A DNA stretch of 64,000 nt. Origin: an uncultured Myxococcales bacterium (GTDB taxonomy: Bacteria > UBA10199 > 2-02-FULL-44-16 > JAAZCA01). The position numbers and the translations under genes were made by a program. A model generated the notes under the pieces. The model had not been told where the DNA came from. It was given only the letters and a program-made list of their open reading frames with translations, and did no database searches. Location of the stretch: the NCBI GenBank assembly GCA_964480565.1, contig CAYZSU010000002.1, positions 3,367 to 67,366 on the forward strand, given 5' to 3'. Shown here piece by piece: positions 1 to 63,177 of this stretch. Every line of letters begins with the position of its first letter. Position 1 is the stretch's first letter.

Positions 1-1
1 A

Positions 2-820
2 CATACGCCAGAAGGAAAGACCATATTAATTGACACTGGCCCGATGGATAATGCGCATATCATCCAATCCTATCTATATGCGCAAGGCATTCACACATTG
101 GATGCGATATTTATCACACATTATCATGCCGACCACATCGGCGGCCTAAGATCTATTTTAATTGGACCGGATAATACCATGCACACAGACGATGATATGG
201 CGATTACACTTGGCATTATTGATCGCGGCCATGATAGTCGCGCAAATGCACTATCACTGTATTCCACATATGATGACAGTGCCCATGAGTATCGTCATAC
301 CGCTTATAGTGGTGACACCTATACATTTGGCAATATGCTTATCTCAGTAATCGCTGTAAATGGACAGGTTGTTAATAATGATCTACGGATGGATATGGCA
401 TTGGATGAAAATGCCAAAAGCCTTTGCTTACGCATTACTATCAATGATCGCCATATTTTTATTGGCGGCGATATTACAGGTGGCAATGATTTACCGCCTG
501 ATCAAACACTGGACATGGAAACACCCATAAGCATTGAACTTGGTGACATTGATATACTCAAGGTGTCACATCATGGAAGTATCACCAGTACCAATGCCAC
601 ATTTTTAGCCAATACACAGCCAGAGCTGGCTATTATTTCCGCTGGCAATGAAAATGATTATGGCCATCCTCATTTTACAGTCATCGATCGACTGCATGCC
701 AATGACATTGACATCCATGCCACTCAAGCCGGGCATTTATCCGAATTACACCCAGCAACCGTGCATAATGATAATATTCATTTATATATTTCTAGCTCAG
801 GAAATTATTGGATTGAGTAG
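2..820 (+). CDS. MBL-fold metallo-hydrolase, ComEC/Rec2 C-terminal-domain type. It is 5'-truncated by the window edge; the reading frame is open back to nt 2.
   Basis: Motifs HYHADHIGG (HxHxDH), KVSHHGSITS and AIISAGNENDYGHP match the ComEC MBL domain. The in-frame upstream codons encode ...GKTILIDTGP. Stop codon at 818-820. Confidence 0.6.
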   Translation, partial: HTPEGKTILIDTGPMDNAHIIQSYLYAQGIHTLDAIFITHYHADHIGGLRSILIGPDNTMHTDDDMAITLGIIDRGHDSRANALSLYSTYDDSAHEYRHTAYSGDTYTFGNMLISVIAVNGQVVNNDLRMDMALDENAKSLCLRITINDRHIFIGGDITGGNDLPPDQTLDMETPISIELGDIDILKVSHHGSITSTNATFLANTQPELAIISAGNENDYGHPHFTVIDRLHANDIDIHATQAGHLSELHPATVHNDNIHLYISSSGNYWIE

Positions 821-829
821 AGCATCCTA

Positions 830-2227
830 TTAATAAGGATATACGGGTGTCTCATAGGATGAATGGATCACTTCTTTTTGACTATCTTTGGAAGTCGTGT
901 CATTGGGTGTATCTTTTGAATTTTCTTTTAAAGATGGTTTTGTCGTATCACTAGTTTTTGACTTGCTCATTTCTTTTGGCAATGCAGGTTTTTTATCGGG
1001 CGACTCATAGGATGATGCCACGATAGGTTTTTCTTCTGCACGAATTTTTTTGGCCCGAGGCACATGATGCGCACCTGACAAAGGGGGTTGATAATTCTGA
1101 TACCGATATCCAGCTACATTGAAAATAACTCGGCGATTTAATGCCCTGCCTGTTTCAGTGTCATTCGATGCAATGGGATTGGATGCACCATAGGAAATAG
1201 GAGTTAATTTTACATTGGCGCGCACATTCATTTTTTTCATATACTGAATGACAATACGCGCACGATGTTTGGAAATAATCTGATTGGCAGAAAAGCTCCC
1301 CACTGCATCTGCATTTCCACCCACACGAATTTCCTGAATCCACGTATTTTTATTCACTGTATCCACAACTTGAGAAATACCCTCTTTGGCCGCATTGTTT
1401 AAAGACGCACTATTAAATCCAAAGTATACCGGCTGTATGGTTTTAATTTCACCGCCCGATACAACACCTTTGCCTGTTTCTGGACATCCATCCTGGTCGG
1501 CAAAGTTATTAATTGTTTCTTTGATGCGCGGACATTTATCCAAATAATCATTAATGCCATCTGCATCTGTATCTAGTTTAGCCAACTCCATCATGGCCAT
1601 CCACTGTTGATCGCCATAATTATCGCGAAGCACATAAAATTTTGGGCACGATGCACTATCCACGCCATGCACATAGTTATCCGCATTGGCAGGACATTCA
1701 TCTACCATAGAAATAGCCGTCTTTAAATCATAATACTTGGGACATGCCGTATCATGATATTCATGCCGAAAATCAGCCGCATTATCCGGACAGCGCATTT
1801 CCATTTCTGACACGCTTAATGTATAAATCGAATGAATTTCACTCATTGAAAAATTATCGCTTAATTGAAAAACCTTGGGACATGCGGCATCATGGCGCGC
1901 TGGATCAAACTGATTTTCATCCGCTGGGCAGCGTAACACAAGATCCGATAAATCACGCAATTCATAGTATTTTAAGCATGATTCTTCATGAACCGATTTA
2001 TTATAATGATTGGGATCATCCGGACAATTGGTTTTTAAATCCTGCAATTCCACATAATTCATTTGCGGTGAAAATTTTAGCTGACAGGTAAATGCATCGG
2101 CTTGCGCCTTAGTTTTAAATTCATTAGTCATAAATCGATAGGATAATCCCAAATTTCCACGCACTTTTGCGCCCTTCACTCCACAAACCAAACACGTTCC
2201 TGCCCCTGCCACCATGGATAATCCCAA
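830..2227 (-). CDS. OmpA-family protein, C-terminal part. It has Cys-rich and thrombospondin-type-3-like Asp repeats, an OmpA_C peptidoglycan-binding domain and a Lys/Ser/Thr-rich tail. It probably continues from the upstream beta-barrel ORF through a frameshift.
   Basis: Repeats DTDADGINDYLDKCP and DQDGCPE. OmpA_C-like block NSASL...GGNADAVGS...NRRVIF. The frame opens only at 2242, there is no signal peptide, and the N-terminal residues GNLGLSYRF look like a terminal OMP beta-strand. Confidence 0.65.
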   Translation of the reverse strand: MGLSMVAGAGTCLVCGVKGAKVRGNLGLSYRFMTNEFKTKAQADAFTCQLKFSPQMNYVELQDLKTNCPDDPNHYNKSVHEESCLKYYELRDLSDLVLRCPADENQFDPARHDAACPKVFQLSDNFSMSEIHSIYTLSVSEMEMRCPDNAADFRHEYHDTACPKYYDLKTAISMVDECPANADNYVHGVDSASCPKFYVLRDNYGDQQWMAMMELAKLDTDADGINDYLDKCPRIKETINNFADQDGCPETGKGVVSGGEIKTIQPVYFGFNSASLNNAAKEGISQVVDTVNKNTWIQEIRVGGNADAVGSFSANQIISKHRARIVIQYMKKMNVRANVKLTPISYGASNPIASNDTETGRALNRRVIFNVAGYRYQNYQPPLSGAHHVPRAKKIRAEEKPIVASSYESPDKKPALPKEMSKSKTSDTTKPSLKENSKDTPNDTTSKDSQKEVIHSSYETPVYPY

Positions 2228-3182
2228 TTTTTTTATCTGATATCAGAGCCTCTGCTGGCGCTAAATCACGATCTCTAAAAAACTTATCATTAACCGATGT
2301 CATGGCATTCACTTCAGCAGCCACATGCCATGCTTGACTTAACTGTCCTGAAACACCCGCACCCAATGACAATAGATGTTGATAATTGATATTTTGAATA
2401 CTTACTTTTTTGCCTGTACGAAAACCCAGATTCACAGCAATACCCAGTTTAGAATGTGGATAGATATCCAGTGCAGCCTTCATACCACCGGTAATACCTG
2501 CATCACCAGTATAGTGAGTATCGCTACCTGTTGGAACAGTAATAAATGGCATTAATGCCACACCAATGGGTGATTTACATGCGCCTAGCAACTTACTCTT
2601 CAACTCAATGCGCAAATCCCCCACATCAATCTGTGTATTAAGCGATGTAGTTGACCTGTCCAAAGGCGATTTAAATGAATTATATAGTACAAATGGCATA
2701 TCAATGCCCAATTGCAACCACGGCATAATGCCCACCGCAGCGGTTAAATCACTGACCAGTAAATGATCGATTACCCCACGGGCACGAAAGTTACTGCTTT
2801 TTACCTGCATGGGTTTAAATGCATAGGAATGATGCATACCCACTAAAAACTGTTTGGCATACAAACTCTCTGATCCGCTAAGCATGGAATATGATGATGG
2901 ACCAATCACAGGTTGATGGAAAATACCATTAAATGTTTGCGAAGCTGCAAATGCATGGCCATGCATTATTGCAAGCATGCCAAAGGTCAAACAAATGAGA
3001 TTGTTGAAAAGCACCCATCTTCGGTGTTTCCCGCTACACCCGTAATCCTTAACAACTCGCATGGTCGCTCGGCCCACGGATTTACGGGCGCCTTGAATCT
3101 GGGCATTTTTGAATAACCCCACAAATTGTCCATTTTTCAATAGTCCCCAAATGAATAGGATTTTTCGATATGAATATGTCAC
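2124..3182 (-). CDS. Beta-barrel-like N-terminal part of the OmpA-family protein. Its signal-peptide region carries an in-frame MITE insertion; the ancestral start is GTG at 3182 with an AAGAGG Shine-Dalgarno sequence. Alternative internal starts at 3062 (ATG inside the MITE) or 2978.
   Basis: Alternating amphipathic beta-strand pattern (KAALDIYPHSKLGIAVNLGFRTG; LSLGAGVSGQLSQAWHVAAEVNAM). Residues 12-61 are a translation of repeat copy A. The reconstructed pre-insertion N-terminus VTYSYRKILFICLTFGMLAIMHGHAFA|AS is a clean signal peptide. Confidence 0.5.
   Translation of the reverse strand: MTYSYRKILFIWGLLKNGQFVGLFKNAQIQGARKSVGRATMRVVKDYGCSGKHRRWVLFNNLICLTFGMLAIMHGHAFAASQTFNGIFHQPVIGPSSYSMLSGSESLYAKQFLVGMHHSYAFKPMQVKSSNFRARGVIDHLLVSDLTAAVGIMPWLQLGIDMPFVLYNSFKSPLDRSTTSLNTQIDVGDLRIELKSKLLGACKSPIGVALMPFITVPTGSDTHYTGDAGITGGMKAALDIYPHSKLGIAVNLGFRTGKKVSIQNINYQHLLSLGAGVSGQLSQAWHVAAEVNAMTSVNDKFFRDRDLAPAEALISDKKIGIIHGGRGRNVFGLWSEGRKSAWKFGIILSIYD
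2999..3147 (+). mobile_element. MITE-like dispersed repeat, copy A (core type 1). Flanked by a direct duplication CAAATGA (2992-2998 and 3148-3154).
   Basis: Shares GATTGTTGAAAAG-CACCCATCTTCGGTGTTTCCCGCTACACCCG...TCTGGGCATTTTTGAA...CAATAGTCCC with copies at 27861, 31693 and 32744. Termini are inverted; flanks are target-site-duplication-like. Confidence 0.8.
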
Positions 3183-3250
3183 TCAAACCTCTTACTTAAG
3201 GAAAACATATTTTTTTTATCAAATTCACGATTGAAAGACAAGGAATTGCC

Positions 3251-4885
3251 CTAATCTTTCTTTTGATGCATTGATTTCAACTTACCTATTTTCTGCTGAA
3301 TAGTGACGATATGGGTTTTAGCGCTTTTTGTCCTAGATACAATATTTAAAATAGCATCCTTATAATAACGAAGCGCTTCGGAATACTCTTTTTGATGCGC
3401 ATATACATCACCCAAATGATCCAGCACAGCTGCAGACTGCGGTGATAATTGATGTGCTTTTTTCAAATAAACCAATGCCCGCACATAATCGCCCATTTTA
3501 AAATACACCCATCCCAATGAATCGACTATAAAACTATTATTTGGCCGAATCACCATTGCTTTTTTGATCATGGCCAAAGCCTTTTCCAAATGAATATCAT
3601 GTTCCGCATATAAATATCCTACAAAATTCAATGCATCCGCATTATTGGGATTTAATACAAGTACCTGCTGCATCGTTTGCAACGCATTTTCAGATTGATC
3701 GTTTTTTTCATATAACACTGCAAGAAGAACAGCTAAGCGCTCATTGTTAGGTAATTGTTTGCGGCCATTTTTTAATATACCAATACCCTTTTGAAGTTGA
3801 CCACGCCCTTCAAGCAATGCGGATAATAATTCATAGTAATCCACAATATTGGGCTGATTTGCAATGGCGTCATTGAGTGCATCAATGGCCTTTTGAGTTT
3901 GTTTGCTATTTTGATACAAGCTCGCTAAATGCAATCTAGCATCCCTATAAAAACTCGATTGATGCGATATCACCTTCATATGCATAATAGCGTGATCAAT
4001 ATCCTTTCGATTCTCATACAATAAACCCAAGTAAAATCGAATTTTATCCGCTTCCGGATGATCGATTAAAATCGCTTCAAATACCTTTGTGGCATGATCA
4101 TATTGTTTGAGTTCATAATGAATTAATGCCATCCGCAACATGGCCGACAGATTGTCGGGCTCTGATTCCGTTATTATTTTATAGTATGTTAACGCTTTTT
4201 CATATTCTTTATCATGCAGATATATAGTGGCGAGTGCAATTAATGCATTTTTATTTTGTGAATCTACACGCAAAGCTTCTTGATATGCATGCATTGCCAT
4301 GGTTATTTTCTTATCAATCTTCTCATATATATTTCCTAAAAGCACCCAGCCTGCGACATAATCCGGATACTCATTTAAGAGTTGCTTCAATATACGTACT
4401 GCTATTTTATGCTGCCCTAAGTACACATGGGATTGAATTAAAAAAACCGTGGCTTCATGATGATTTGAATTTTTTTTCAAAAATGAGTTAAATATATCAA
4501 TGGCTTTTTTATGTTGATTGGTAGCTGCAAATAACTTCCCTAGCAGCAATATCGCGGGTTTAAGCGATTCATCCAAACCAATCGCATGCTGGCAGGATTC
4601 AATAGCAGCATAGTGTTTTTTAGAAATTGCATCATTTAATGCAGACATATAATAAAAATATGCGGTATTTGGATGTGCATCGATCAAGTCCAATATGATT
4701 TTTTTTGCCTGATTGGATTGCCCACTTTGGCTGAGCAAATCAGCGTGAAGCAACTGATAATAAGGCATTTCATCGGATTCTCTTATCACAGGCCGCGCAT
4801 TTTTTTTACCTGCACAAGATATCATAATTGACATCAGACAGATAGCCATACCCCTAATATGCCATAATTTAAAAAACTGTCTCAT
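3251..4885 (-). CDS. TPR-repeat lipoprotein
   Basis: Multiple 34-aa TPR-like repeats. N-terminus MRQFFKLWHIRGMAICLMSIMISCAGKK has a lipobox (MISC). ATG at 4885 verified (plus-strand cat at 4883-4885). The longer ORF, back to 5014, would overlap tlyA. Confidence 0.6.
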   Translation of the reverse strand: MRQFFKLWHIRGMAICLMSIMISCAGKKNARPVIRESDEMPYYQLLHADLLSQSGQSNQAKKIILDLIDAHPNTAYFYYMSALNDAISKKHYAAIESCQHAIGLDESLKPAILLLGKLFAATNQHKKAIDIFNSFLKKNSNHHEATVFLIQSHVYLGQHKIAVRILKQLLNEYPDYVAGWVLLGNIYEKIDKKITMAMHAYQEALRVDSQNKNALIALATIYLHDKEYEKALTYYKIITESEPDNLSAMLRMALIHYELKQYDHATKVFEAILIDHPEADKIRFYLGLLYENRKDIDHAIMHMKVISHQSSFYRDARLHLASLYQNSKQTQKAIDALNDAIANQPNIVDYYELLSALLEGRGQLQKGIGILKNGRKQLPNNERLAVLLAVLYEKNDQSENALQTMQQVLVLNPNNADALNFVGYLYAEHDIHLEKALAMIKKAMVIRPNNSFIVDSLGWVYFKMGDYVRALVYLKKAHQLSPQSAAVLDHLGDVYAHQKEYSEALRYYKDAILNIVSRTKSAKTHIVTIQQKIGKLKSMHQKKD

Positions 4886-4889
4886 ACCT

Positions 4890-5681
4890 TTAACTTTCAT
4901 TTGTTGAAATTGTATCGGACACAATATCAAATGCAATGAGGTATTCTTTATTCCCTTTAGATCCACAAATAGGTGATTTTGAAACACCTTTACAAATCCA
5001 ATGACATTGCTCACCTTGTTTTTTTATCGATTCAATCACTCGCTGATGCACTGACAAATCACGCACTATACCTTTTTTGCCGATAAATTGACGACCTGCT
5101 TCAAATTGTGGTTTAATTAAGGCAATGAGTTGACAAGGCTTGGTAATAAAGCGCGCTATTTCTGGAAATATATGTGCCAAGGAAATAAAAGACACATCAA
5201 TCACAAATAAATCAATTGGATCCGTCAGTGATTGAACATTTAAATCACGAATATCTGTTTTTTCCATGGATATAATACGTGAATCACTACGCAAACTATC
5301 GGCCAATTGATCACGGCCAACATCAATGGCAATCACTTTTTGCGCATGATGTTGAACTAAGCAATCGCTAAAACCACCCGTTGATGCACCAATATCCATG
5401 CATATAAAACTTTTCGGATTAATTTTAAAAAAATCAAGCGCATGCGCGAGTTTTATTCCAGCACGGCCTACATAGGGATGATCACTACCTTGTATTGTAA
5501 TTAGCGCATCATGGGATACCGCATAACTGGGTTTTGTAATACATTGATTGTCAACAAATACACATTCCGATTGAATCAACGATTTTGCCCGCTGGCGCGA
5601 CAATGCCAATTTTTTAGCAACCAACATATTATCAATACGTTCTTTATAATTGGATTGTGCCATGGCATTCAGATCAATCAA
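4890..5681 (-). CDS. tlyA: TlyA-family rRNA 2'-O-methyltransferase (hemolysin A)
   Basis: N-terminal S4-like domain plus FtsJ-like methyltransferase block GRAGIKLAHALDFF...CMDIGASTGGFSDCL...VIAIDVG. Confidence 0.8.
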   Translation of the reverse strand: MIDLNAMAQSNYKERIDNMLVAKKLALSRQRAKSLIQSECVFVDNQCITKPSYAVSHDALITIQGSDHPYVGRAGIKLAHALDFFKINPKSFICMDIGASTGGFSDCLVQHHAQKVIAIDVGRDQLADSLRSDSRIISMEKTDIRDLNVQSLTDPIDLFVIDVSFISLAHIFPEIARFITKPCQLIALIKPQFEAGRQFIGKKGIVRDLSVHQRVIESIKKQGEQCHWICKGVSKSPICGSKGNKEYLIAFDIVSDTISTNES

Positions 5682-6539
5682 TTATAATGCATTTAGGATT
5701 TCTTGCCGCTTCTTTGCATATTCTTTATCTGAAATTAGTTTTTTATCGTGAAGCGATTTCAACTGAAGCAAGCGCATTTCTATATTTTTTGTAGATGCCA
5801 TATCACTCGTATCTGCCTGAGAACTAGCAATCACTTGTGTATGCGGTTTTACCTTCGCATCATCAGTACCTGGTGTAAATTCAGGTAAAATATCCGTAGA
5901 AGGTGGTACTGGCTGCACACTGCCACGCATTGCATAACCCTCATAGGGATGGTCCAACTTAAAAACCACTTCTCGATTGCTAGCCCCTAAAGACTGCCCA
6001 GGGGAAAGTTCTAGCTGTACGCGAAGTCCACGCGCACGATTCATGGCACCTCGTTCTGTTCCACGACGATCCGTATCGCCACTGATTTTGGCAAATAATT
6101 TACGAAACTCCATGTGCAACTCATTATCGCTAATCCAACATTTGACAATATGCACATAATCATTACGCACAATAAATCGCGGATTTTTGGATAAATAGGA
6201 AAAATTAATTTCTTCCAATGAATTGGCTTGCTCAAAAGCAGTAATAATAGCAGGTGCTAAATAATCAATCGCCGCATCATTAAAAATTTGCTGTGTATGT
6301 ACTTTACGCTTAACTAAAAATGATTTGGACAGCTTTAGTGATTTTAATGCCGCACGCACACCCATTTCATTTAATGTTACTGGATGCGTCATATGCCTAG
6401 AGGTGGATACAGATGGTTTGACTTCACGAAGCTTTACCGCATTAAATCGCCCATCATTAACAATATAAGTGGTTTTAGCGGCTAAGGCAACCATGGGCAT
6501 GCACATAGATATTATCATTATATAGATCAATTGTTTCAT
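5682..6539 (-). CDS. Secreted hypothetical protein with C-terminal SHOCT-like motif. Abuts tlyA and is probably co-transcribed with it.
   Basis: Signal peptide MKQLIYIMIISMCMPMVALA. C-terminus LKSLHDKKLISDKEYAKKRQEIL is SHOCT-like. GGAGG Shine-Dalgarno sequence 5 nt upstream of the ATG at 6539. Confidence 0.5.
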   Translation of the reverse strand: MKQLIYIMIISMCMPMVALAAKTTYIVNDGRFNAVKLREVKPSVSTSRHMTHPVTLNEMGVRAALKSLKLSKSFLVKRKVHTQQIFNDAAIDYLAPAIITAFEQANSLEEINFSYLSKNPRFIVRNDYVHIVKCWISDNELHMEFRKLFAKISGDTDRRGTERGAMNRARGLRVQLELSPGQSLGASNREVVFKLDHPYEGYAMRGSVQPVPPSTDILPEFTPGTDDAKVKPHTQVIASSQADTSDMASTKNIEMRLLQLKSLHDKKLISDKEYAKKRQEILNAL

Positions 6540-6776
6540 TATTTCCTCCAATGGCCATGGGATTTATATCAGAAATACACGCTTGTCCATAAAAATGCTA
6601 GTTTGCCCCAGGACTTTTCGCATTTAAAATTATTACAAAAAACAGCTATTGTGAGGTTTTTGATTGGACAATTGAAATGCATATTTTCTATTTTTAGGAG
6701 ATTTTCGTTGATACTTCCATCGGTAAAAATCGGCAGAGCCTCCCCATCTAACTCACTTTGTTCGCTCAAATCGAGA

Positions 6777-7136
6777 TTATTTTTGAACAAATAATGCTTC
6801 AAACATGGGATCTACCTCTGCAGCATTGACAATTTGATTAGCGATCTTTAGAGCCATAGCCTCGTCAACAATATCAAATGAATCGCCGATAATCTCCCAA
6901 ACACGCTTTGTAATCGCTTGTTTAAGCTTTTCACGCCGCAATGTCCCCTGATTACCCCCCTTGGTCAGTTCATTCAACCATGCCGCACGATCTGCAAGCA
7001 CATGATTGGGCACATCAATGGATGGTGTTTTTTGTACTATTTTTTCCTTTTGATGTTTATCTGTCTCAATGCTGCCTTGTTGCAAGGCTTCCACAGATAC
7101 TTTATCCGCTAGATATTTAATTAAATCTGCTACCAT
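6777..7136 (-). CDS. Hypothetical protein
   Basis: ORF with GGGAGGAG Shine-Dalgarno sequence upstream of the ATG at 7136/7142. No recognisable domain. Confidence 0.35.
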   Translation of the reverse strand: MVADLIKYLADKVSVEALQQGSIETDKHQKEKIVQKTPSIDVPNHVLADRAAWLNELTKGGNQGTLRREKLKQAITKRVWEIIGDSFDIVDEAMALKIANQIVNAAEVDPMFEALFVQK

Positions 7137-7228
7137 AGTCATCTCCTCCCAAAGTATTACTATGCAGTTGTTACTTATTATTGTTATCGCACTTTTCAAC
7201 CAAAAAGTTGCTAATTTTTTTAATTATT

Positions 7229-7258
7229 TTAAAAAAAAGAGCGATTTATATCGCTCTT
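7229..7258 (-). terminator. Rho-independent terminator downstream of mltD
   Basis: Perfect hairpin AAGAGCGAT-ttata-TCGCTCTT (7237-7258), followed on the minus strand by T8 (7229-7236). Confidence 0.6.
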
Positions 7259-7287
7259 TTAAATCAAAACAAGGGTAATACTTATGT

Positions 7288-9420
7288 TTATGGTGTTATC
7301 TGTAATGTCGTTCCCGGCGTTACTTTGGATGGATCATGCAGTTTATTCCATTTTTGTAATTGCGCAATGCTCACATTATGTTTTCTCGCAATATTCCATA
7401 ATGTATCACCTGCTCGCACTTGATAATACATATTTTGCTCTACCTTATCCGCATCTGCGACCAGTTGATCACGCACAGATGCCAGCTCTAAAGCAGATGA
7501 TTGCTTACCACGGATACGAAGGGACTTGCCTGCACGAACGGATTTGGCATGCCGAATATTATTCCAGACCATCAACTGTTTGATACTCACATTATGCCGA
7601 TTGGCAATACCGCCCAAGGTTTCTCCAGGCTTGACTGTATACTGATAGGATTTAGTTGCAGATATTGTTGATGAGGATATATTATTATCCGCCATGCGCA
7701 CTGATGAACGGCTACTGCGTTGACCGCTCCCCTGTCGTCCCACTTGCTCACCATAGATACGAAGGGACTTGCCTGCACGAACAGATTTTGCATTCCGAAT
7801 ATTATTCCATGCCATCAGCTGTTTAATACTCACATTATGTCGGTTGGCAATACCACCCAATGTCTCTCCAGATTTAATTGTATATTTATAGGACTTACTC
7901 GTATTTCTTTTAGAATTAGCCGTATTCTTTGCAATTGATAGTTGTGGACGAATTTTTATTTTCTGCCCTGCCCGAATGCGTTTTGGATTTTTAATATTAT
8001 TCCATGTCATAATATCCGCGCTAGTCACATGGTACTTTTTAGCAAGGCCTGACAATGTATCCCCGGATTTTAATATATGTATTTTAGACTTTGCTTTGGA
8101 TGATGTATTTGTAGCTATACGCGATGATGAATATATTTTTAATTTCTGGCCCAATCGTACTGTATTTCGTTTATTCAATTTATTCCATTTTTGTAAATTC
8201 GTTAATGAGACATGATATTTCCTGGCAATATGCCCAGCAGTCTCCCCCTTTTTTACACGATGATATACGGCTTGCTGACGTTTGGAAGTGCGCGACCGGC
8301 CATGCGATGCAACCGATGATGGCATTTTCCCATTTAGAGGTATAATTAGTTTTTTTCCCAACTTTAAATGACGATAATTTCGAATGTGGTTGGCACGTGC
8401 AATGGTCTTTACTCCTACATTATATTTTCTAGCAATACCTGATAGTGTATCCCCACGTTTGACACGGTGGTACGCCATGCGAATACGCTTGGACTTAGGC
8501 AATTTGGCATATTTTTGATTAAAAATAGCCGCTGTCCCTTTGGGCAAACGCACTTTATAATTACGCACTGGTGGTGTAATTTTACGATATAAATGCGGGT
8601 TTAGAATAAGAATGTTTTTATTTGTACTACCTGTTAAGTCTGCAATCACACTTAAATCAGTCTGAGTACCCACCATACTCACATCATAATCAAAGGGTGC
8701 TGCATAGTTGATATTTGTAAATCCAAATTTTTCAGGCATTTTTGCAATAATTGCTGCCGCTATATACTTTGGCACATAATTACGGGTTTCCGCACGAAGT
8801 GCACGCTTATGCGCTGCCCACGTCCAAAAATCTTTCACACCTGTCATTTTATATGCTTTGTTAATGCGACCAGGCCCTGCATTATATCCCACCATCGCCA
8901 CATACCAATCGCCATGCTTATCATATAAATCACGGAAAAATCTGGCAGCCGCACGTGTAGACTTATACACGTCTCGGCGTTCATCCACCCAATGACCCAC
9001 TTTTAAATCATAAATACGTGCAGTAGATGCAATAAATTGCCAAAAACCAACTGCGCTCGCATGTGAATAGGCCTGTGAATTGAACCCACTTTCAATCATA
9101 GCAATATATACTAAATCCAGAGGTAATCCTTCTTCTTTTAATATGCTGCGCATAATTGATATATATCGACCTGAACGTTCTAAATATCGTTGAAATGATT
9201 TTCGACCTGGACCTTGGAAATACTCTAACCACGCCACCACACGCTCATTAATAGTAATAGGCATATCAAATTTTGGCAAATATTTTAGATTATGTTCTTT
9301 AATATAACGATGTGAATACTTGGATGATCGTACTTTTGGCGTTTTCAAACAGGAAATACTTCCAACCGCGTAAATAACAACTAGAATGATCAAGAGTGCA
9401 TATCGAAAAGAATGTCGCAT
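7288..9420 (-). CDS. mltD: Membrane-bound lytic murein transglycosylase D-like lipoprotein (SLT domain plus five or six LysM repeats)
   Basis: SLT catalytic region ...ESGFN...VGFWQF.... Repeated LysM modules (YxVKxGDTLxxIAxKYxV...WN). Lipobox GSISC. Start at 9420, so that the ftsZ terminator hairpin (9445-9486) lies upstream of the CDS. Confidence 0.8.
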   Translation of the reverse strand: MRHSFRYALLIILVVIYAVGSISCLKTPKVRSSKYSHRYIKEHNLKYLPKFDMPITINERVVAWLEYFQGPGRKSFQRYLERSGRYISIMRSILKEEGLPLDLVYIAMIESGFNSQAYSHASAVGFWQFIASTARIYDLKVGHWVDERRDVYKSTRAAARFFRDLYDKHGDWYVAMVGYNAGPGRINKAYKMTGVKDFWTWAAHKRALRAETRNYVPKYIAAAIIAKMPEKFGFTNINYAAPFDYDVSMVGTQTDLSVIADLTGSTNKNILILNPHLYRKITPPVRNYKVRLPKGTAAIFNQKYAKLPKSKRIRMAYHRVKRGDTLSGIARKYNVGVKTIARANHIRNYRHLKLGKKLIIPLNGKMPSSVASHGRSRTSKRQQAVYHRVKKGETAGHIARKYHVSLTNLQKWNKLNKRNTVRLGQKLKIYSSSRIATNTSSKAKSKIHILKSGDTLSGLAKKYHVTSADIMTWNNIKNPKRIRAGQKIKIRPQLSIAKNTANSKRNTSKSYKYTIKSGETLGGIANRHNVSIKQLMAWNNIRNAKSVRAGKSLRIYGEQVGRQGSGQRSSRSSVRMADNNISSSTISATKSYQYTVKPGETLGGIANRHNVSIKQLMVWNNIRHAKSVRAGKSLRIRGKQSSALELASVRDQLVADADKVEQNMYYQVRAGDTLWNIARKHNVSIAQLQKWNKLHDPSKVTPGTTLQITP

Positions 9421-9435
9421 GACGACCTCATTAGT

Positions 9436-9486
9436 AAAAACTATATCGCACAACAATAATAACTACTATCATTACTGCTGTGCGAT
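9436..9486 (-). terminator. Candidate terminator after ftsZ (end of the dcw operon)
   Basis: Inverted repeat ATCGCACAaCAa...tgCTGTGCGAT (9445-9486), 5 nt after the ftsZ stop. Followed on the minus strand by TTTTTA. Confidence 0.4.
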
Positions 9487-9490
9487 TTAA

Positions 9491-10819
9491 TTAGTCCGCT
9501 TGTTTGCGTAGAAAAGTTGGAATATCATACTCATCATTTTGATATTCAATTACACCAATATCACGTGCCATCCCTTTCATTTCTTCACGAAATTCATCAT
9601 TATGAATGACTGATGGCTCAACAACTGCTTTTTGTGATGGTGCGCTGCGAGTGGCACCACTCGGATATGAAAATGTTCGTGCAGGTGCATCATCTATAAG
9701 AGGTTTGACTGTTTTTGTCACTGATTCCAAAATATTACTTCCTGATGAGGTTGTTCCTATTTTCGATGACCCTGCGATATTTTTTTGTGCATTAGCTTGA
9801 TTGGCCCGGCCTGCAATACCAATCGATTGTGTGGAATGTACTGGTCGATGCGCACGATTTAATGGCTTATTAAATCCAGTAGCAATCACTGTCACACGCA
9901 TTTCATCTTTCATGGATTCATCAATCACTGCACCAAAAAGTATATTGGCATCTTCATGGGCTTCCTCTTGAATAATCTTGGATGCTTCACTGATTTCAAC
10001 CAATGTCATATCTGAACCACCAGTAATATTGATGAGAATACCAGTCGCTCCTTTAATGGATGTATCCTCCAAAAGTGGACTAGAAATCGCATGTGTCGCA
10101 GCATCAATAGATCGACCCTCACCAACAGCAGAACCGGTACCCATAAGAGCCATACCCATTTCATTCATTACTGTACGTACATCTGCAAAGTCTAAATTGA
10201 TTAAGCCATGAACAATAATTAAATCTGAAATCCCTTTAACCGCTTGATGAAGAACTTGATCCGCCTGTTTAAACGCATCAACGACTGTCATATCAGGCGT
10301 AACAACACTAAGCAGCTTTTCATTTGGAATAGTAATTAATGTATCCACTGCATTTCGAAGTTCTGCCAAACCACGTTCAGCTTGCATATTACGATGACGG
10401 CCTTCGAAGGTAAATGGCTTGGTAACCACACCCACAGTCAATGCACCCATTTCTTTGGCAATTTTAGCAATGACAGGTGCGCCGCCAGTACCTGTACCAC
10501 CGCCCATACCTGCGGTAATAAAGACCATATCAGCGCCTTCCAAATGTTCTGCAATATTACGCTGATCTTCTAATGCCGCATTTTTACCTACATCTGGATT
10601 AGCACCTGCACCCAAACCTTTGGTGAGCTCGCGACCAATTTGAATCTTGGTTCCTGCTAAATTGGCATGAAGCGCCTGCATATCTGTATTTGCTGCGATA
10701 AAATCCACACCATCTAATCCGCATTCAAGCATTGTATTAACCGCATTTCCACCGCCACCGCCAATACCAATCACTTTTATTTTCGCATTCTGTGAATGAC
10801 TTTCTACTAATTCAAACAT
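9491..10819 (-). CDS. ftsZ: Cell division protein FtsZ
   Basis: GGGTGTG tubulin signature, NTDMQAL, and the C-terminal DIPTFLRK peptide. Confidence 0.95.
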
Positions 10820-10891
10820 GATTTTCCCCTTTCCTTTTCCCTTAAAGGTCCAAAGCTCACAATGTAAGCCTTAAAAAAGCGTATTTTGTAT

Positions 10892-16541: not shown

Positions 16542-17654
16542 CTATCTTTCTTTTTTTTCATTAAAAACACATTCTTGAACTATTACTTTAGAAGCATGTT
16601 CTAACTTACATTTTGAAAATGCAGCATGCATTTTTTGCAATTCATCATTGTTATCCACAAATCGCTTCAAATACATTGTCACACAATGTTCATCAAATTC
16701 ATAATCTGAAATTGTTATTGCCGCACCTATTGCATCAAGCGCACGCGCATTGGCAAGCTGATGATTATCCGCTGCATGCGGGTATGGAATTAACAGTGAT
16801 GGCCGCTTAATCACCTTAAGCTCTGCAATAGTCCCCGCACCTGAACGCGCAATTACAAGATGCGCCTGTTCATATCCATTCCACATACATTCTATAAAAT
16901 CAGACACCGTCGCTTCAAATCCATACTGATGATAGGCCTCTCTCAACTCCCTAGTATCTTTTGAGCATCCTGTCTGATGAATGAATTTGATCGACTGACT
17001 ATAATCAGAAAGCAAGGGAAGTGCATTTTTTATAGATTGATTAATCCGTCGTGCACCTTGAGATCCACCAAACACTAAAATAGTCAACGGCATTTGCATT
17101 TGATATGGCGAATTCAATCGATCCCAAATTTCCGTACGCACAGGGTTTCCAATGCACTTTATATTATTATTTTTAAAATACTCTTTGGCCTCATCAAATG
17201 CTGTAAATACAATTTTTGCAAACTTCGATACTAATCTATTGGATAATCCAGGAATTGCATTGGGCTCTACCAAGTAGAGAGGCACGCGTAATATTGCGGC
17301 TGCCAATGCTACAGGTCCTGCAGCATACCCACCGATACTTAAAATAAAATCAGGTGGATCTGAACGAATAATAGCCATTGATTTTAGAATCGATTTTGGC
17401 AATTTAATCATTGTTTGTAATTTACCAACAAGCCCTTGCCCCTTTAATTTATATTTATTCGCGCATACTAATTCTAATGTCCACCCAAGCGCTGGCAACA
17501 ATGTTGACTCCATACCCTTCTCTGTTCCCAAAAAAGTAATACGATGATTATCGCTTAACCGACTAAATTGCTGAGCAATGGCAATACCTGGAAATACATG
17601 CCCGCCAGATCCGCCTGCCACAATCATCATATGCATGCGATTACTCATCCCCAT
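16542..17654 (-). CDS. murG: Undecaprenyldiphospho-muramoylpentapeptide beta-N-acetylglucosaminyltransferase MurG
   Basis: MIVAGGSGGHVFPG N-terminal motif. GT28 C-terminal domain. Confidence 0.9.
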   Translation of the reverse strand: MGMSNRMHMMIVAGGSGGHVFPGIAIAQQFSRLSDNHRITFLGTEKGMESTLLPALGWTLELVCANKYKLKGQGLVGKLQTMIKLPKSILKSMAIIRSDPPDFILSIGGYAAGPVALAAAILRVPLYLVEPNAIPGLSNRLVSKFAKIVFTAFDEAKEYFKNNNIKCIGNPVRTEIWDRLNSPYQMQMPLTILVFGGSQGARRINQSIKNALPLLSDYSQSIKFIHQTGCSKDTRELREAYHQYGFEATVSDFIECMWNGYEQAHLVIARSGAGTIAELKVIKRPSLLIPYPHAADNHQLANARALDAIGAAITISDYEFDEHCVTMYLKRFVDNNDELQKMHAAFSKCKLEHASKVIVQECVFNEKKER

Positions 17655-27846: not shown

Positions 27847-27860
27847 TTATTTCAATAGTG

Positions 27861-28009
27861 GGGCTGTTGAAAAATGCCCATCTTCGGTGTTTCCCGCTAC
27901 ACCCGCAATCCTCACGTACTCGCATGTACGCTCCGGTTACGGGTTTGCGGAAGCCTAGAATCTGGGCATTTTTGAACAACCCCTAAAATTGCTATTTCTC
28001 AACAGTCCC
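27861..28009 (+). mobile_element. MITE-like dispersed repeat, copy B (core type 1). Perfect 6-bp direct duplication ATAGTG (27855-27860 and 28010-28015).
   Basis: GGGCTGTTGAAAAATGCCCATCTTCGGTGTTTCCCGCTACACCCGCAATCC...TCTGGGCATTTTTGAACAACCCCTAAAATTGCTATTTCTCAACAGTCCC. Termini are mutual reverse complements. Confidence 0.85.
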
Positions 28010-31155: not shown

Positions 31156-31665
31156 ATGACACGTACTTGGCTTATCGCACTCACAGCACTTATCACAACT
31201 TGCATGGTATCACCTCTTGTATATGCATTAAATGACTGCTACCATTCAGGGGAACAATTACTCATACATGATAATAGTACAGGACATGTTCGTTATGAAC
31301 GTACTGAGACAATTTATCAGCAACCTGATAATTTTTTACTCGCCACAATTGAAGATGAACGTATTATTTTCACACCCATTGTTGAAGTTTTCAAAAATGA
31401 GCTTACCAATCGTTTACTTCGCATTGAATTATCCACTGGCCATAGTTTGATGATCACAGAATCCCATCCAGTATGGGTGAATGACACATTTATCACAGCT
31501 GGCACATTAAGCATCGATGATACATTAACCAGTATTACTGGCGAATCCGTAAGCATCATGGATGTCAAGGTGATGAATTATGATGGATTTGTATATAATT
31601 TTGCTATCAATGGTTCAGGCATACAAATCAGCGATGGCATCCGCCTAGGCGGATCAGACATATAA
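31156..31665 (+). CDS. Small secreted protein consisting essentially of a Hint (Hedgehog/intein / bacterial intein-like) domain
   Basis: Strong AGGAG Shine-Dalgarno sequence. Signal peptide MTRTWLIALTALITTCMVSPLVYA. Hint-like blocks: LTGHSLMITESHPVWV, AGTLSIDDTLTSITGESVSI and the terminal VYNF. Confidence 0.45.
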   Translation: MTRTWLIALTALITTCMVSPLVYALNDCYHSGEQLLIHDNSTGHVRYERTETIYQQPDNFLLATIEDERIIFTPIVEVFKNELTNRLLRIELSTGHSLMITESHPVWVNDTFITAGTLSIDDTLTSITGESVSIMDVKVMNYDGFVYNFAINGSGIQISDGIRLGGSDI

Positions 31666-31692: not shown

Positions 31693-31843
31693 GGGACTGG
31701 TGAAAAATAGCAATTTGTGGGGTTGTTCAAAAATGTCCAGATTCAAGGCCTCCCGCAAACTCGTAACCGGAGCGTACATGCGAGTACGTGAGGATTGCGA
31801 GTGTAGCGGGAAACACAGAAGATGGGCGTTTTTCAACAACCCC
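31693..31843 (-). mobile_element. MITE-like dispersed repeat, copy C (core type 1, inverted orientation). Direct duplication (C)ACTAT at 31687-31692 and 31843/31844-31848.
   Basis: Reverse complement of copy B along its whole length (GGGACTGGTGAAAAATAGCAATTTGTGGGGTTGTTCAAAAATGTCCAGATTC...GAAGATGGGCGTTTTTCAACAACCC). Confidence 0.8.
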
Positions 31844-32354: not shown

Positions 32355-33565
32355 ATGAATAAAAAGGGACTCCAAAAAATCGGATACGATGAACGAATAG
32401 ACAGTGTAAGCGGTGAATACCTTCAGGACGGGTTTACGATTGCCAGAATAATCGAGGTAAAAATAGCTATACCGTATCAAATGGTCGTCATGAGATGCCG
32501 GCAGAACTCTGCGGTAAATTTCTATTTGATATAGAGAATACAAGCAATTTTCCGACTGTCGGTGACTGGGTAACAATACAGGCCCTTTCTGATAATGCAC
32601 TTGCCCTTATCCACTCTGTCTTGCCGCGCAAGACGCTATTGAAGTGTAAAGAAGCTGGCAGAAAAATAGCATTCCAGCTGATTGCTGCCAATATAGACAT
32701 CGGATTAATCGTACAACCAGCAGATCAGATTAACCTGCTGGATGGGACTGTTGAAAAACGCCCATCTTCGGTGTTGTTCAGCAAATTCAATTCAGTTACA
32801 TACTCGTATGTATGCGCCTTCATTGAATTTGCTGTCCGCCTAGAATCTGGGCATTTTTGAACAGCCCCTAAAATACCTATTTCTCAACAGTCCCTGGATA
32901 GGTATTGCGCGATGCTATAATGAGAGCGATATACAACCTATAGCGGTATTTACGAAAAAAGATCTGATCCCACCTGATGAGATCTCATCCATACAAAATG
33001 ACCTTGCCATGTTACACATGCAATATGTGTTTATCAGCAATGCCGTCAAAGGTGGAGAAACGGATCTATCCAAAAATCTCGTTTCAGGTAAAACATATTG
33101 TTTACTTGGCAAATCCGGAGTCGGCAAGACATCCCTTCTCAATCGATTGCTTCATAGTGATGAGTTCAAAGTAAATAATGTTCGAAAAAAAGATGGAAAA
33201 GGAAAGCATACCACTACAAAACGACAGCTGGTGTGTCTTGATTCCGGCAGCATCTTCATTGATACACCAGGCATGCGAGAACTTGGAAATTTTAAAATAA
33301 ACAAAGGCATCGATGAAACGTTTGAAGAGTTCTCTTTGCTAGCATTATCCTGTCGCTTCAAAAATTGTACCCATAACCACGAAGAGGGATGCGCAGTTCT
33401 TGACGCTATCTCACGGGGAAAATCGAACAAACTAGATATGATAATTTTTTAAAGCTCAAACGAGAGGCAGAATTCTATGACATGTCATATCATGAAAAGC
33501 GCCATAAGGATAAATCCTTTGGAAAAATGATAAAACAGTACAAAAAATTTAAAAATCAGCAATAG
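32355..33565 (+). pseudogene. rsgA: rsgA (ribosome small-subunit-dependent GTPase A) pseudogene, split by MITE copy D and at least three frameshifts
   Basis: RsgA blocks recovered in three different frames: OB domain (...CGKFLFDI...PTVGDWV), IAANIDIGLIV / LDRY / IAVFTKKDL, G domain (GKSGVGKTSLLN, GKGKHTTT, DTPG), zinc finger (CRFKNCTHNHEEGCAV) and tail RYDNFLKLKRE. Confidence 0.75.
32744..32893 (+). mobile_element. MITE-like dispersed repeat, copy D (core type 2), inserted inside rsgA. Direct duplication (C)TGGAT at 32738-32743 and 32894-32899.
   Basis: GGGACTGTTGAAAAACGCCCATCTTCGGTGTTGTTCAG...TCTGGGCATTTTTGAACAGCCCCTAAAATACCTATTTCTCAACAGTCC. Same termini as copies A-C but a different core. 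Confidence 0.8.
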
Positions 33566-61835: not shown

Positions 61836-62312
61836 TTATGCCTCCTTACTTTCTAACTCAGCAACAGCTTTGGGACGTATTTCAGAAGTAGTTTCTTCTT
61901 TTTTAACGTCATTGGTGCTATCGCTCATTTTTTTTGCACTTACATTCACAGCACTTGTTTCCACTGCATCAGCAGCCTCACCTTTGGCTGCAATTTCTGT
62001 CTGACGTACATTGACATCCACTGTTTCTGCTTTAACAACTGTTAAAAAACGCAATACTGTTTCATCCAAACGAAACATGCGTTCAAGTTGATTTACCACT
62101 TGTGTATTGGCAGCTGCATAGTTGATGCAGGTATACACACCCTTATTTTTCTTATTGATGGGATATGCAAGTGATTTTTGCCCCATACTGCGCGCATAAA
62201 ACAAATGCCCATCATGTTGCTTAATCAAGCCTGCAACCTTATCCTTCATGTCGGATTTTTCCTGCTCAGATAAATTAGGGGTGGTAATTAAAACAGTCTC
62301 ATACTCTCTCAT
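61836..62312 (-). CDS. rpsF: 30S ribosomal protein S6 with acidic C-terminal extension
   Basis: MREYETVLI... S6 fold. AGGAGG Shine-Dalgarno sequence 5 nt upstream. Confidence 0.85.
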   Translation of the reverse strand: MREYETVLITTPNLSEQEKSDMKDKVAGLIKQHDGHLFYARSMGQKSLAYPINKKNKGVYTCINYAAANTQVVNQLERMFRLDETVLRFLTVVKAETVDVNVRQTEIAAKGEAADAVETSAVNVSAKKMSDSTNDVKKEETTSEIRPKAVAELESKEA

Positions 62313-62390
62313 AGATCCTCCTTCCGGGTCTTAAAAATAAGCTCTGGGCCAATCCCAGAACTAAGGAGACTGATAAGTCTTTAATTTAAT

Positions 62391-62610
62391 GGGTTTTTTT
62401 AAAAACGCCCATCATCAGTGTTATTCAGTAAATTCAATTCAGTAGCATATTCTTATGGTTGCGCTCTCATTGAATTTTCTGTTTAGCGATGTGACAACCT
62501 GAGTGTTTGCATTCGCAAATAGCCAAGCTGATCAAGCGCTTATGCATTACTGACAGTGAAAATATAATAGTCGCTGTCTGCTTAAAACCTGGATATTTTT
62601 GAACAGTTCC
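62391..62610 (+). mobile_element. Long mosaic MITE variant (copy F). It has the type-2 left end plus a ~75-bp extra core module, and a truncated/divergent right end that abuts the pth stop codon.
   Basis: GGGTTTTTTTAAAAACGCCCATCATCAGTGTTATTCAG... matches copy D. The middle matches 31911-32040. The end is ...GGATATTTTTGAACAG. Confidence 0.65.
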
Positions 62611-63177
62611 TCAATTTGTATGAAATCGTTGTTGAACATCTGCAAGTGTCATATCGCTTACCAAACATTTAATTGCGCGACTTGCAGTATTAATCAACTC
62701 TTTCAATTGTATATCATCATTACTATCAAAGGCTTGCAATACATAATCCGCGGGATTCATATAATTTGGTGGTCTGCCAATGCCAAACCGAATGCGGTAT
62801 ATGTCCTTACTGCTAAGCATTTGATAAATTGACCGAATGCCATTGTGACCACCATGACCACGATTCGTATCAATTTTTATTTTTCCAAATGAAATATCTA
62901 GATCATCATGAATCACAATAATATCATGGCACTCTATTTTATAATACCCTGCAATACTAGCAACCGCTTCACCAGATAAATTCATAAATGTTTCTGGCTT
63001 AATCAATATGGCAGGCCGATTTTCAATTAGCCCTTTACCGATAAGTGACTTAAATTGCTTATTGCATACATCGATATTCCACTGACCTGCCAAGTAATCG
63101 ATTACATGAAAGCCAATATTATGGCGATGTCTAGAATATCGTCTACCCGGATTACCTAGTCCAACAATTAACTTCAT
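62611..63177 (-). CDS. pth: Peptidyl-tRNA hydrolase
   Basis: MKLIVGLGNPG...HNIGF... catalytic His/Asp blocks. Confidence 0.9.
   Translation of the reverse strand: MKLIVGLGNPGRRYSRHRHNIGFHVIDYLAGQWNIDVCNKQFKSLIGKGLIENRPAILIKPETFMNLSGEAVASIAGYYKIECHDIIVIHDDLDISFGKIKIDTNRGHGGHNGIRSIYQMLSSKDIYRIRFGIGRPPNYMNPADYVLQAFDSNDDIQLKELINTASRAIKCLVSDMTLADVQQRFHTN

Follow-up and report, generated by a model that had tools for sequence, protein, structure and literature searches.

The question raised by this locus is what became of a gene for an exported protein when a mobile element inserted itself, in frame, into its signal-peptide region. The gene is an OmpA-family gene, here called the ompA-like gene, near the left end of the window, by which the whole analysed stretch of 64,000 nucleotides (nt) is meant (scaffold_1093 of ENA ERZ23498660; record position = window position + 3141). 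An earlier, sequence-only reading of this DNA had described the insertion as a miniature inverted-repeat transposable element (MITE) of 52 codons and had suggested that it was exapted as a new 5' end and had not simply inactivated the gene. The insertion was confirmed: 156 nt were added in frame without a stop codon, and the repeat is homologous to other copies. Exaptation was not borne out by the analysis. The element is probably an old, tolerated in-frame passenger that lengthens a cleaved pre-sequence, and not a new functional 5' end.

The element in the ompA-like gene (copy A) is a MITE-like palindrome of 151 nt at positions 2997..3147 (or from 2999) of the minus strand, reading GGGACTATTG...CAACAATCTC on the gene strand. 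It begins 35 bases inside the open reading frame (ORF) 3182..2124. On the gene strand its target-site duplication reads ATTTG, with the upstream copy at 3148..3152 and the downstream copy at 2992..2996 (both minus strand). Copy A and one copy of the duplication together make 156 nt or 52 codons, free of stop codons in the gene frame, which is the only open frame among the six frames of copy A. The total of 156 nt had been given correctly by the sequence-only reading, but with a duplication of 7 bp (3148-3154). The duplication comprises only 5 bp and the element 151 nt, as in seven other copies; the two extra bases are the element's own end, CCCC, mutated to TCTC in copy A. Excision of the 156 nt in silico yielded MTYSYRKILFICLTFGMLAIMHGHAFA|ASQTFN, a signal peptide of 27 amino acids (aa), so that the claim of a restored signal peptide behind a GTG at 3182 with the sequence AAGAGG in front of it was upheld. 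The same insertion was present in the assemblies JGI 3300009008 and ENA ERZ23498660. Its presence in the JGI contig shows that it did not arise as a chimera during assembly.

The anatomy of the element family was derived from an alignment of 8 full copies, copy A and seven others, drawn from the window and other contigs of the same samples. Seven of these are 151 nt long and one is 150 nt long. The consensus ends on the gene strand are GGGACTGTTGA...TTCAACA(A/G)CCCC, and the terminal inverted repeats, GGGRCTGTTGARAAAT / ATTTTTCAACAGCCCC, are about 16-17 nt long and match at about 14 of 16 positions. With a third, internal copy of the arm a hairpin of about 124 nt is formed. This hairpin is very stable in the intergenic copies (dG -52 to -71 kcal/mol, z -6 to -8.4) and largely degraded in copy A (dG -38/-44, z -1.5/-2.2). 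AT-rich direct repeats of 5 bp flank all 8 copies. The duplication is exact in six of them (ATTTG, ACTAT twice, ATCCA, ATAAT twice) and matches at 4 of 5 positions in the copies within an apbE gene (ATTAT/TTTAT) and a lipoprotein-like gene (ATAAT/ATATT), which are described below. Small size, lack of a transposase gene, terminal repeats, a duplication of constant length and several dispersed copies support the assignment of the repeat as a MITE-like, non-autonomous element.

The sense frame used in copy A was free of stop codons in 6/8 copies, intergenic ones included, so the open frame is a property of the family; among composition-matched random 156-mers, 3.5% were stop-free in one frame. 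Stop-removing mutations after the insertion of copy A were considered and rejected, since the intergenic copies C and L014 are open in the same frame. The subfamily consensus also contains GGAG-N5-ATG in the stop-free frame (-7.1 kcal/mol), and the hairpin carries this ATG in its apical loop (e.g. positions 70-90 of the copy at 31693-31843 on the plus strand).

In metagenome-assembled genomes (MAGs) labelled Thermodesulfobacteriota, Syntrophaceae, Smithella and "Deltaproteobacteria" the arms of the element are conserved; its centre is variable across these MAGs, yet self-complementary. Rfam held no family for the element: searches of the window at the gathering threshold, and of copy B and a copy from a Syntrophaceae MAG at the E-value threshold, gave only tRNA-Ser and chance-level matches. 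Pfam gave no match to the translations of the element, a literature search with the arm sequences returned only one unrelated Francisella primer, and a blastn search of plasmids for a parent transposon gave no match to transposon ends. In the loci examined no autonomous partner with the same ends was seen. The hairpin apex of copy B (CCTCACGTACT.G..TGTACGCTCCGG, window 27904-27938) resembled an intergenic repeat of E. coli (L029:401-433) at 31 of 35 positions (E about 0.01-0.1). The E. coli repeat, which is unannotated and of low copy number, was present in 4210 of 5426 genomes, with 1-3 sites per genome; the likeness is probably due to chance.

The sequence-only reading had placed the OmpA-family gene at 2124-3182. 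An ORF is indeed present there (3182..2124, minus strand, in the ORF list of the window), running from the GTG start to a TAA and encoding 352 aa, but it does not contain the end of the gene. The whole gene extends over 830..3182 of the minus strand, as one ORF in the JGI contig and as two in the window, and encodes a pre-sequence, an N-terminal domain of about 290 aa, Cys-rich repeats, a TSP3-like repeat and an OmpA peptidoglycan-binding domain. The final barrel-strand motif (AGAGTCLVCGVKGAKVRGNLGLSYRF) falls in the downstream ORF of the window (830..2227, minus strand), together with the Cys-rich repeats and the OmpA domain (PF00691). In the Pfam search this domain matched residues 534-631 of the repaired protein (E 2.6e-13), thus falling in ORF 2227..830 and not in 3182..2124, and the ENA annotation also puts it on the downstream ORF. 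The homologues are single proteins of 600-760 aa that span both ORFs of the window.

The split is due to a small lesion. Comparison of JGI contig Ga0115649_1006988 (3300009008) with window positions 1-9140 showed 0 mismatches and 1 gap of 11 nt: CGGCATATGAT is missing between 2237 and 2236 (site 2228..2244, minus strand), beside a run of seven A residues (A7). This deletion shifts the frame and thereby leads to the premature TAA at 2124..2126 (minus strand). With the 11 nt restored, the gene became a single ORF of 783 codons starting at the GTG (P0001), for which the JGI gene call uses an internal TTG as start. The frameshifted product is carried by the ERZ23498660 record only. A homopolymer sequencing error at the A7 run was rejected as the cause, because the difference is a block of 11 nt adjoining the run; no microhomology was found at the borders of the gap. 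The gap is either a real polymorphism or an assembly error. As the two alleles are identical over 9.1 kb except for the deletion, the lesion is very recent or an artefact of assembly and in either case unrelated in time to the insertion. As written in this assembly, the ompA-like gene is most likely a null allele.

Comparison with orthologues had been proposed by the sequence-only reading as a check. None of the 29 orthologues, with identities of 34-51%, contained the 50-aa segment, and all 29 had short signal peptides, standing directly before (A/D)SQTFN. The number of residues before the conserved TFN was 19-33 in the orthologues, except for one with 48, which probably has a miscalled start. 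In the ompA-like gene it was 82, and 30 after excision. These alignments support the view that the element segment is derived and not native. P0001 retains 109 of the 121 alignment columns with a conservation of at least 90% in the orthologues. Orthologues scored likewise kept between 99/127 (78%, the most distant) and 114/116 (98%), and P0001 is within this range. The conservation supports the earlier claim that the insertion did not simply kill the gene. If copy A acquired its divergence of about 15% after insertion, a neutral gene of 2.2 kb would have gained many stop codons meanwhile; it has none, and the insertion appears to have been tolerated for a long time.

From these results the following course of events is proposed. 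A 151-nt non-autonomous palindromic element would have transposed into the boundary between the n-region and the hydrophobic h-region of the ompA-like signal peptide. Because the insert amounts to 156 nt and lies in the orientation and phase of the family's stop-free frame, the ORF stayed open. Translation would most likely start at the native GTG (3180..3182, minus strand), which is also used in the ENA gene call and has the Shine-Dalgarno (SD) sequence AAGAGG 5 nt before it (3188..3193, minus strand; -7.0 kcal/mol), and a pre-sequence of 79 aa would result. The element part would act as a long basic n-region that stays cytoplasmic. The working part of the pre-sequence (2946..3017, minus strand) would consist of KHRR and WVLFNNL from the element, followed by the native ICLTFGMLAIM and HGHAFA as h- and c-region, with predicted cleavage by signal peptidase I at AFA|AS, between 2946 and 2945, a region over which the orthologues align. 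By hand calculation the features of a Sec-type signal peptide are present, namely a basic n-region, an h-region and small residues at -3 and -1. The hydrophobic core (LICLTFGMLAIM / WVLFNNLICLTFGMLAIM), which stands between KHRR from the element and HGHAFA|AS, reached a maximum KD11 of 2.57, as compared to 2.66 in the reconstructed peptide.

As the whole 79-aa pre-sequence would be removed, the mature protein would be unchanged, and the insertion may well have been selectively neutral. In copy A the consensus WAFFNNP has become WVLFNNL, and the proline is therefore gone from the new h-region, which is suggestive but anecdotal. The insertion would be old, as no other copy has diverged so far: copy A shares 81-85% identity with the rest of its subfamily, whose members reach 88-94% among themselves, and the hairpin of copy A is in decay. 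The very recent deletion of 11 nt would later have inactivated the gene in this assembly.

Under exaptation as a new 5' end, the element would itself contain the start of translation and perhaps also that of transcription. The start codon would be the ATG at 3060..3062 (minus strand), giving a signal peptide of 39 aa with the basic n-region of the element. This ATG exists in frame, as the sequence-only reading had stated, and a pre-sequence with a basic n-region, an uncharged run of 18 residues and AFA|AS is predicted from it. The GGAG-N5-ATG of the family consensus lies in that same frame, the equivalent ATG was chosen by the gene caller for another protein (P0063), and a sigma-70-like sequence, TGGACA-16-AAAAAT, is found inside the element at 3132-3105 on the gene strand. 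However, the GGAG of the consensus is CGAG in copy A, and the resulting -2.6 kcal/mol is at the level of random positions (mean -2.7 kcal/mol; median of 28 ATG-started long minus-strand ORFs of the window, -5.65 kcal/mol). The internal start is thus a real feature of the family that has decayed in copy A. A further in-frame start within the element is the TTG at 3138..3140 (minus strand), the JGI start of P0001, with an SD-like GGGGA upstream (-5.5 kcal/mol). The native SD sequence and GTG have survived unaltered and are followed by an open frame, so the gene has no need of a new start, and ribosomes initiating upstream would read through the element. The number of promoter-like matches in the element was not above that in shuffled sequences (3 found, 2.3 expected), and the ompA-like gene can be co-transcribed from the tlyA-TPR genes, which lie upstream on the same strand with a gap of 68 nt. 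The exaptation of the element therefore seems quite unlikely. Even less can be said for the segment being native or the product of a chimeric assembly. Its open frame would fit, but it is homologous to at least 8 dispersed copies with 5-bp duplications of their own, is absent from 29/29 orthologues and is identical in two independent assemblies, which makes this reading highly improbable.

Alternatively, the insertion may have blocked export or translation, so that the ompA-like gene is a decaying pseudogene and the deletion of 11 nt a later step of its decay. An insert of 52 highly basic residues could impair targeting, the window allele is frameshifted, and two other genes were broken in a comparable manner, rsgA of the same region by copy D and a 1-nt frameshift, and a sensor kinase gene by a recent copy. 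Nevertheless, the other allele is an open frame of 783 codons in a genome of 39% GC, and 90% of the highly conserved positions are kept although the element copy has diverged by about 15%; a neutral gene of 2.2 kb should have collected many stop codons in this time. The lesion, moreover, is very recent or an assembly error. Loss of function through the insertion is unlikely. An old passenger in a cleaved pre-sequence remains the preferred explanation, and several points weigh against it. No empty site was found in a close relative, the nearest orthologue being 51% identical. The divergence of copy A could reflect a different source subfamily instead of age. Export of the precursor is a prediction, and the 52-residue insert puts a net charge of about +11 ahead of the h-region. 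The frameshift of the window allele would fit a dispensable or already impaired gene as well. Finally, the contigs with the apbE and lipoprotein-like genes were attributed to the same organism by shared samples, a GC content of about 39% and shared repeat subfamilies, and not by binning.

To find further copies within genes, a profile of the element peptide was searched against 1.84 billion representative proteins. The 25 matches were mostly short spurious ORFs, but several real genes were among them; a word-indexed protein search with the element peptide found one ORF of 58 aa only. In the apbE gene (L019:8001-9113, also L018, L020 and L021; four independent contigs from three samples agree) the element lies in frame inside the signal peptide, 20 nt past the start codon, according to MNIKAI|element|..GLFAIIIAFHTIGMA|NS. 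This copy is intact, with a hairpin dG of about -60 kcal/mol. A gene for a lipoprotein-like protein of 193 aa (L023:3001-3582, also L024) carries a D-type copy in frame in its signal peptide, according to MMARQI|element|..IFFLLIVMSCF. Both copies are located at the boundary of n- and h-region, in the orientation and phase of copy A. The contig with the apbE gene (L018/L019:1-4929), which is attributed to the same population, also encodes ATP-citrate lyase-type proteins (Citrate_bind, ATP-grasp_2), isocitrate dehydrogenase and aconitase near apbE, which hints at a reductive tricarboxylic acid (TCA) cycle in this organism.

The reading frame is preserved by the copies in the ompA-like gene, apbE, the lipoprotein-like gene and pyrD (P0073) and by an old copy in the gene of a hybrid sensor kinase/response regulator (L028:2501-4753). 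This old copy, at about 4411-4521, is degraded and in frame. A second, recent copy lies antisense in the same kinase gene (4637-4787, duplication ATAAT). Its stop codon cuts off the remainder of a receiver domain, and this remainder continues downstream in the same frame. Stop codons were also introduced into rsgA (window 32495-33452, plus strand), which is split by the antisense copy D (32744-32894) with an in-frame stop at 32858-32860 and, in addition, by a 1-nt frameshift just past the duplication. The repaired RsgA matched RsgA_GTPase over positions 1-172 of 174 (E 2e-39), and the C-terminal ORF alone only over 85-172. In the case of P0063, a VWA/HEAT protein of 807 aa on contig L022, the consensus ATG of the element was used as start by the gene caller, and the contig ends within the element.

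Recurrence in three signal peptides of one population (ompA-like, apbE and lipoprotein-like genes) is the most interesting lead of this work. It is conceivable, if doubtful, that the repeat family is pre-adapted to life inside genes and specifically inside signal peptides. Features behind this idea are the length of 151 + 5 = 156 nt, the stop-free frame in most of the full copies and the internal start, and the C-terminal element peptide KHRR-WAFFNNP resembles the n/h junction of a signal peptide. The target is ATWAT-like, and the frame stays open only when the duplication starts at the first position of a codon, so that insertions which preserve the ORF fall on Ile-Ile or Ile-Met. Such insertions may therefore be steered to hydrophobic segments and may be neutral when the segment is a cleavable signal peptide. 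Phase-0 ATWAT sites in the coding sequence of the window had a hydrophobic context in 18% of cases, as compared to 4.3% overall. Target-site preference explains part of the signal-peptide bias, and tolerance of cleavable signal peptides probably accounts for the rest. If this is true, a free-living and uncultured lineage, Deltaproteobacteria-like in its affinities, would show a phenomenon like that of the Rickettsia palindromic elements (RPEs), in which insertions have a defined "safe harbour".

Fusions of MITEs in frame with bacterial genes are already established for the RPEs and for the QMITEs of Coxiella burnetii (PMC10969869, PMC5896051). RPEs are about 150 bp long, and 44 insertions in genes of R. 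conorii are cited (Ogata et al. 2000, as reviewed in PMC10969869). The present family resembles them in behaviour: palindromes of about 150 bp stand in frame in unrelated coding genes, add a conserved peptide and keep the ORF, and copies are both genic and intergenic. The host of the RPEs is an obligate intracellular alphaproteobacterium, whereas the host here is Deltaproteobacteria-like and apparently free-living, with ATP-citrate lyase genes of the reductive TCA type on an attributed contig. In contrast to the RPEs, clear 5-bp target duplications are present, three of the ORF-preserving copies are in cleavable signal peptides and not in mature proteins, and other copies carry stop codons and break genes. 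QMITE1 and QMITE2 supply in-frame segments and basic peptides (PMC5896051). As described there, they share with the present family very stable hairpins that overlap annotated genes and contribute terminal residues or in-frame segments and basic peptides. They differ in sequence and host, their described effects are mostly C-terminal extensions or stops, and that account, as far as available, mentions no signal-peptide insertions.

In-frame insertion of a MITE is one of the few ways in which bacterial proteins gain a whole peptide segment in one step, with Rickettsia as the classic case, and the same process is found here in an unrelated, uncultured lineage. The present copies also point to a reason for survival, as a cleavable signal peptide tolerates additional length and the end of the element restores the junction of charge and hydrophobicity. 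For annotation the consequences are practical. Gene callers pick three different starts for the ompA-like gene and metagenome contigs break at the repeats, and the annotation of secreted proteins in such genomes is unreliable unless the repeat is recognised.

Correia elements of Neisseria and MITEs of the ERIC/BOX type are likewise small, bear inverted repeats at their ends and duplicate their target. Their effects come mainly from sites between genes, and they can carry promoter or ribosome-binding features and alter the expression of neighbouring genes. Copy A, in contrast, is intragenic, and its promoter-like match is at chance level. Miniature elements of the Tn3 family (TIMEs) have a 5-bp AT-rich duplication, GGG(G/A) ends and a 38-bp Tn3-type repeat ending in TAAG. 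The 5-bp AT-rich duplication and ends starting with GGG(G/A) are shared by the present element, but its terminal repeat is shorter (see above), and no 38-bp repeat ending in TAAG is evident. A Tn3/TIME origin is therefore a lead only.

The 64-kb window contains 5 copies of the element in total. Besides copies A and D, these are copy B (27860-28009), copy C (31693-31843, inverted) and the degenerate copy E (about 62389-62617), which has an insertion of about 90 nt between its arms. Copy B is situated between mraZ and a STAS-domain gene plus mraW, in the head of the dcw cluster. Between copies B and C, which stand in opposite orientations, lie 3.7 kb with mraZ, a beta-lactamase-family gene, an LD-carboxypeptidase gene and a PT-HINT fragment. 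The two copies share the duplication ACTAT, in each case with a C before it. An ORF of 169 aa that adjoins copy C (window 31156-31665, plus strand) gave a partial pretoxin-HINT match (E 6e-6) and looks like what is left of a polymorphic-toxin gene. Copy E is flanked by pth (62611..63177) and rpsF (61836..62312).

Both ends of the 31-kb JGI contig coincide with copies of the element (L001:12472-12589; window about 28020), and contig L022, as mentioned above, ends within one. Since contig ends fall on element copies, the repeat fragments short-read metagenome assemblies of this organism. A pattern scan of metagenome contigs for the subfamily centre gave 0 matches. A second scan gave 3, all in organisms of 52% GC and at one locus each; the GC content of the window is 38.7%. 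The best named relatives of its FtsZ, at no more than 75% identity, were from MAGs labelled "Deltaproteobacteria bacterium" and "Pseudomonadota bacterium". The GTDB species representatives that were scanned do not include this genome, and a literature search with the sample accessions returned nothing. Contigs L018 and L019 show only 2 mismatches over 17 kb, yet three of their gene calls disagree (373 vs 348, 177 vs 68 and 131 vs 99 aa), within 9163-10879 and 16620-17015. Gene calling in this genome is thus very sensitive to single-base changes.

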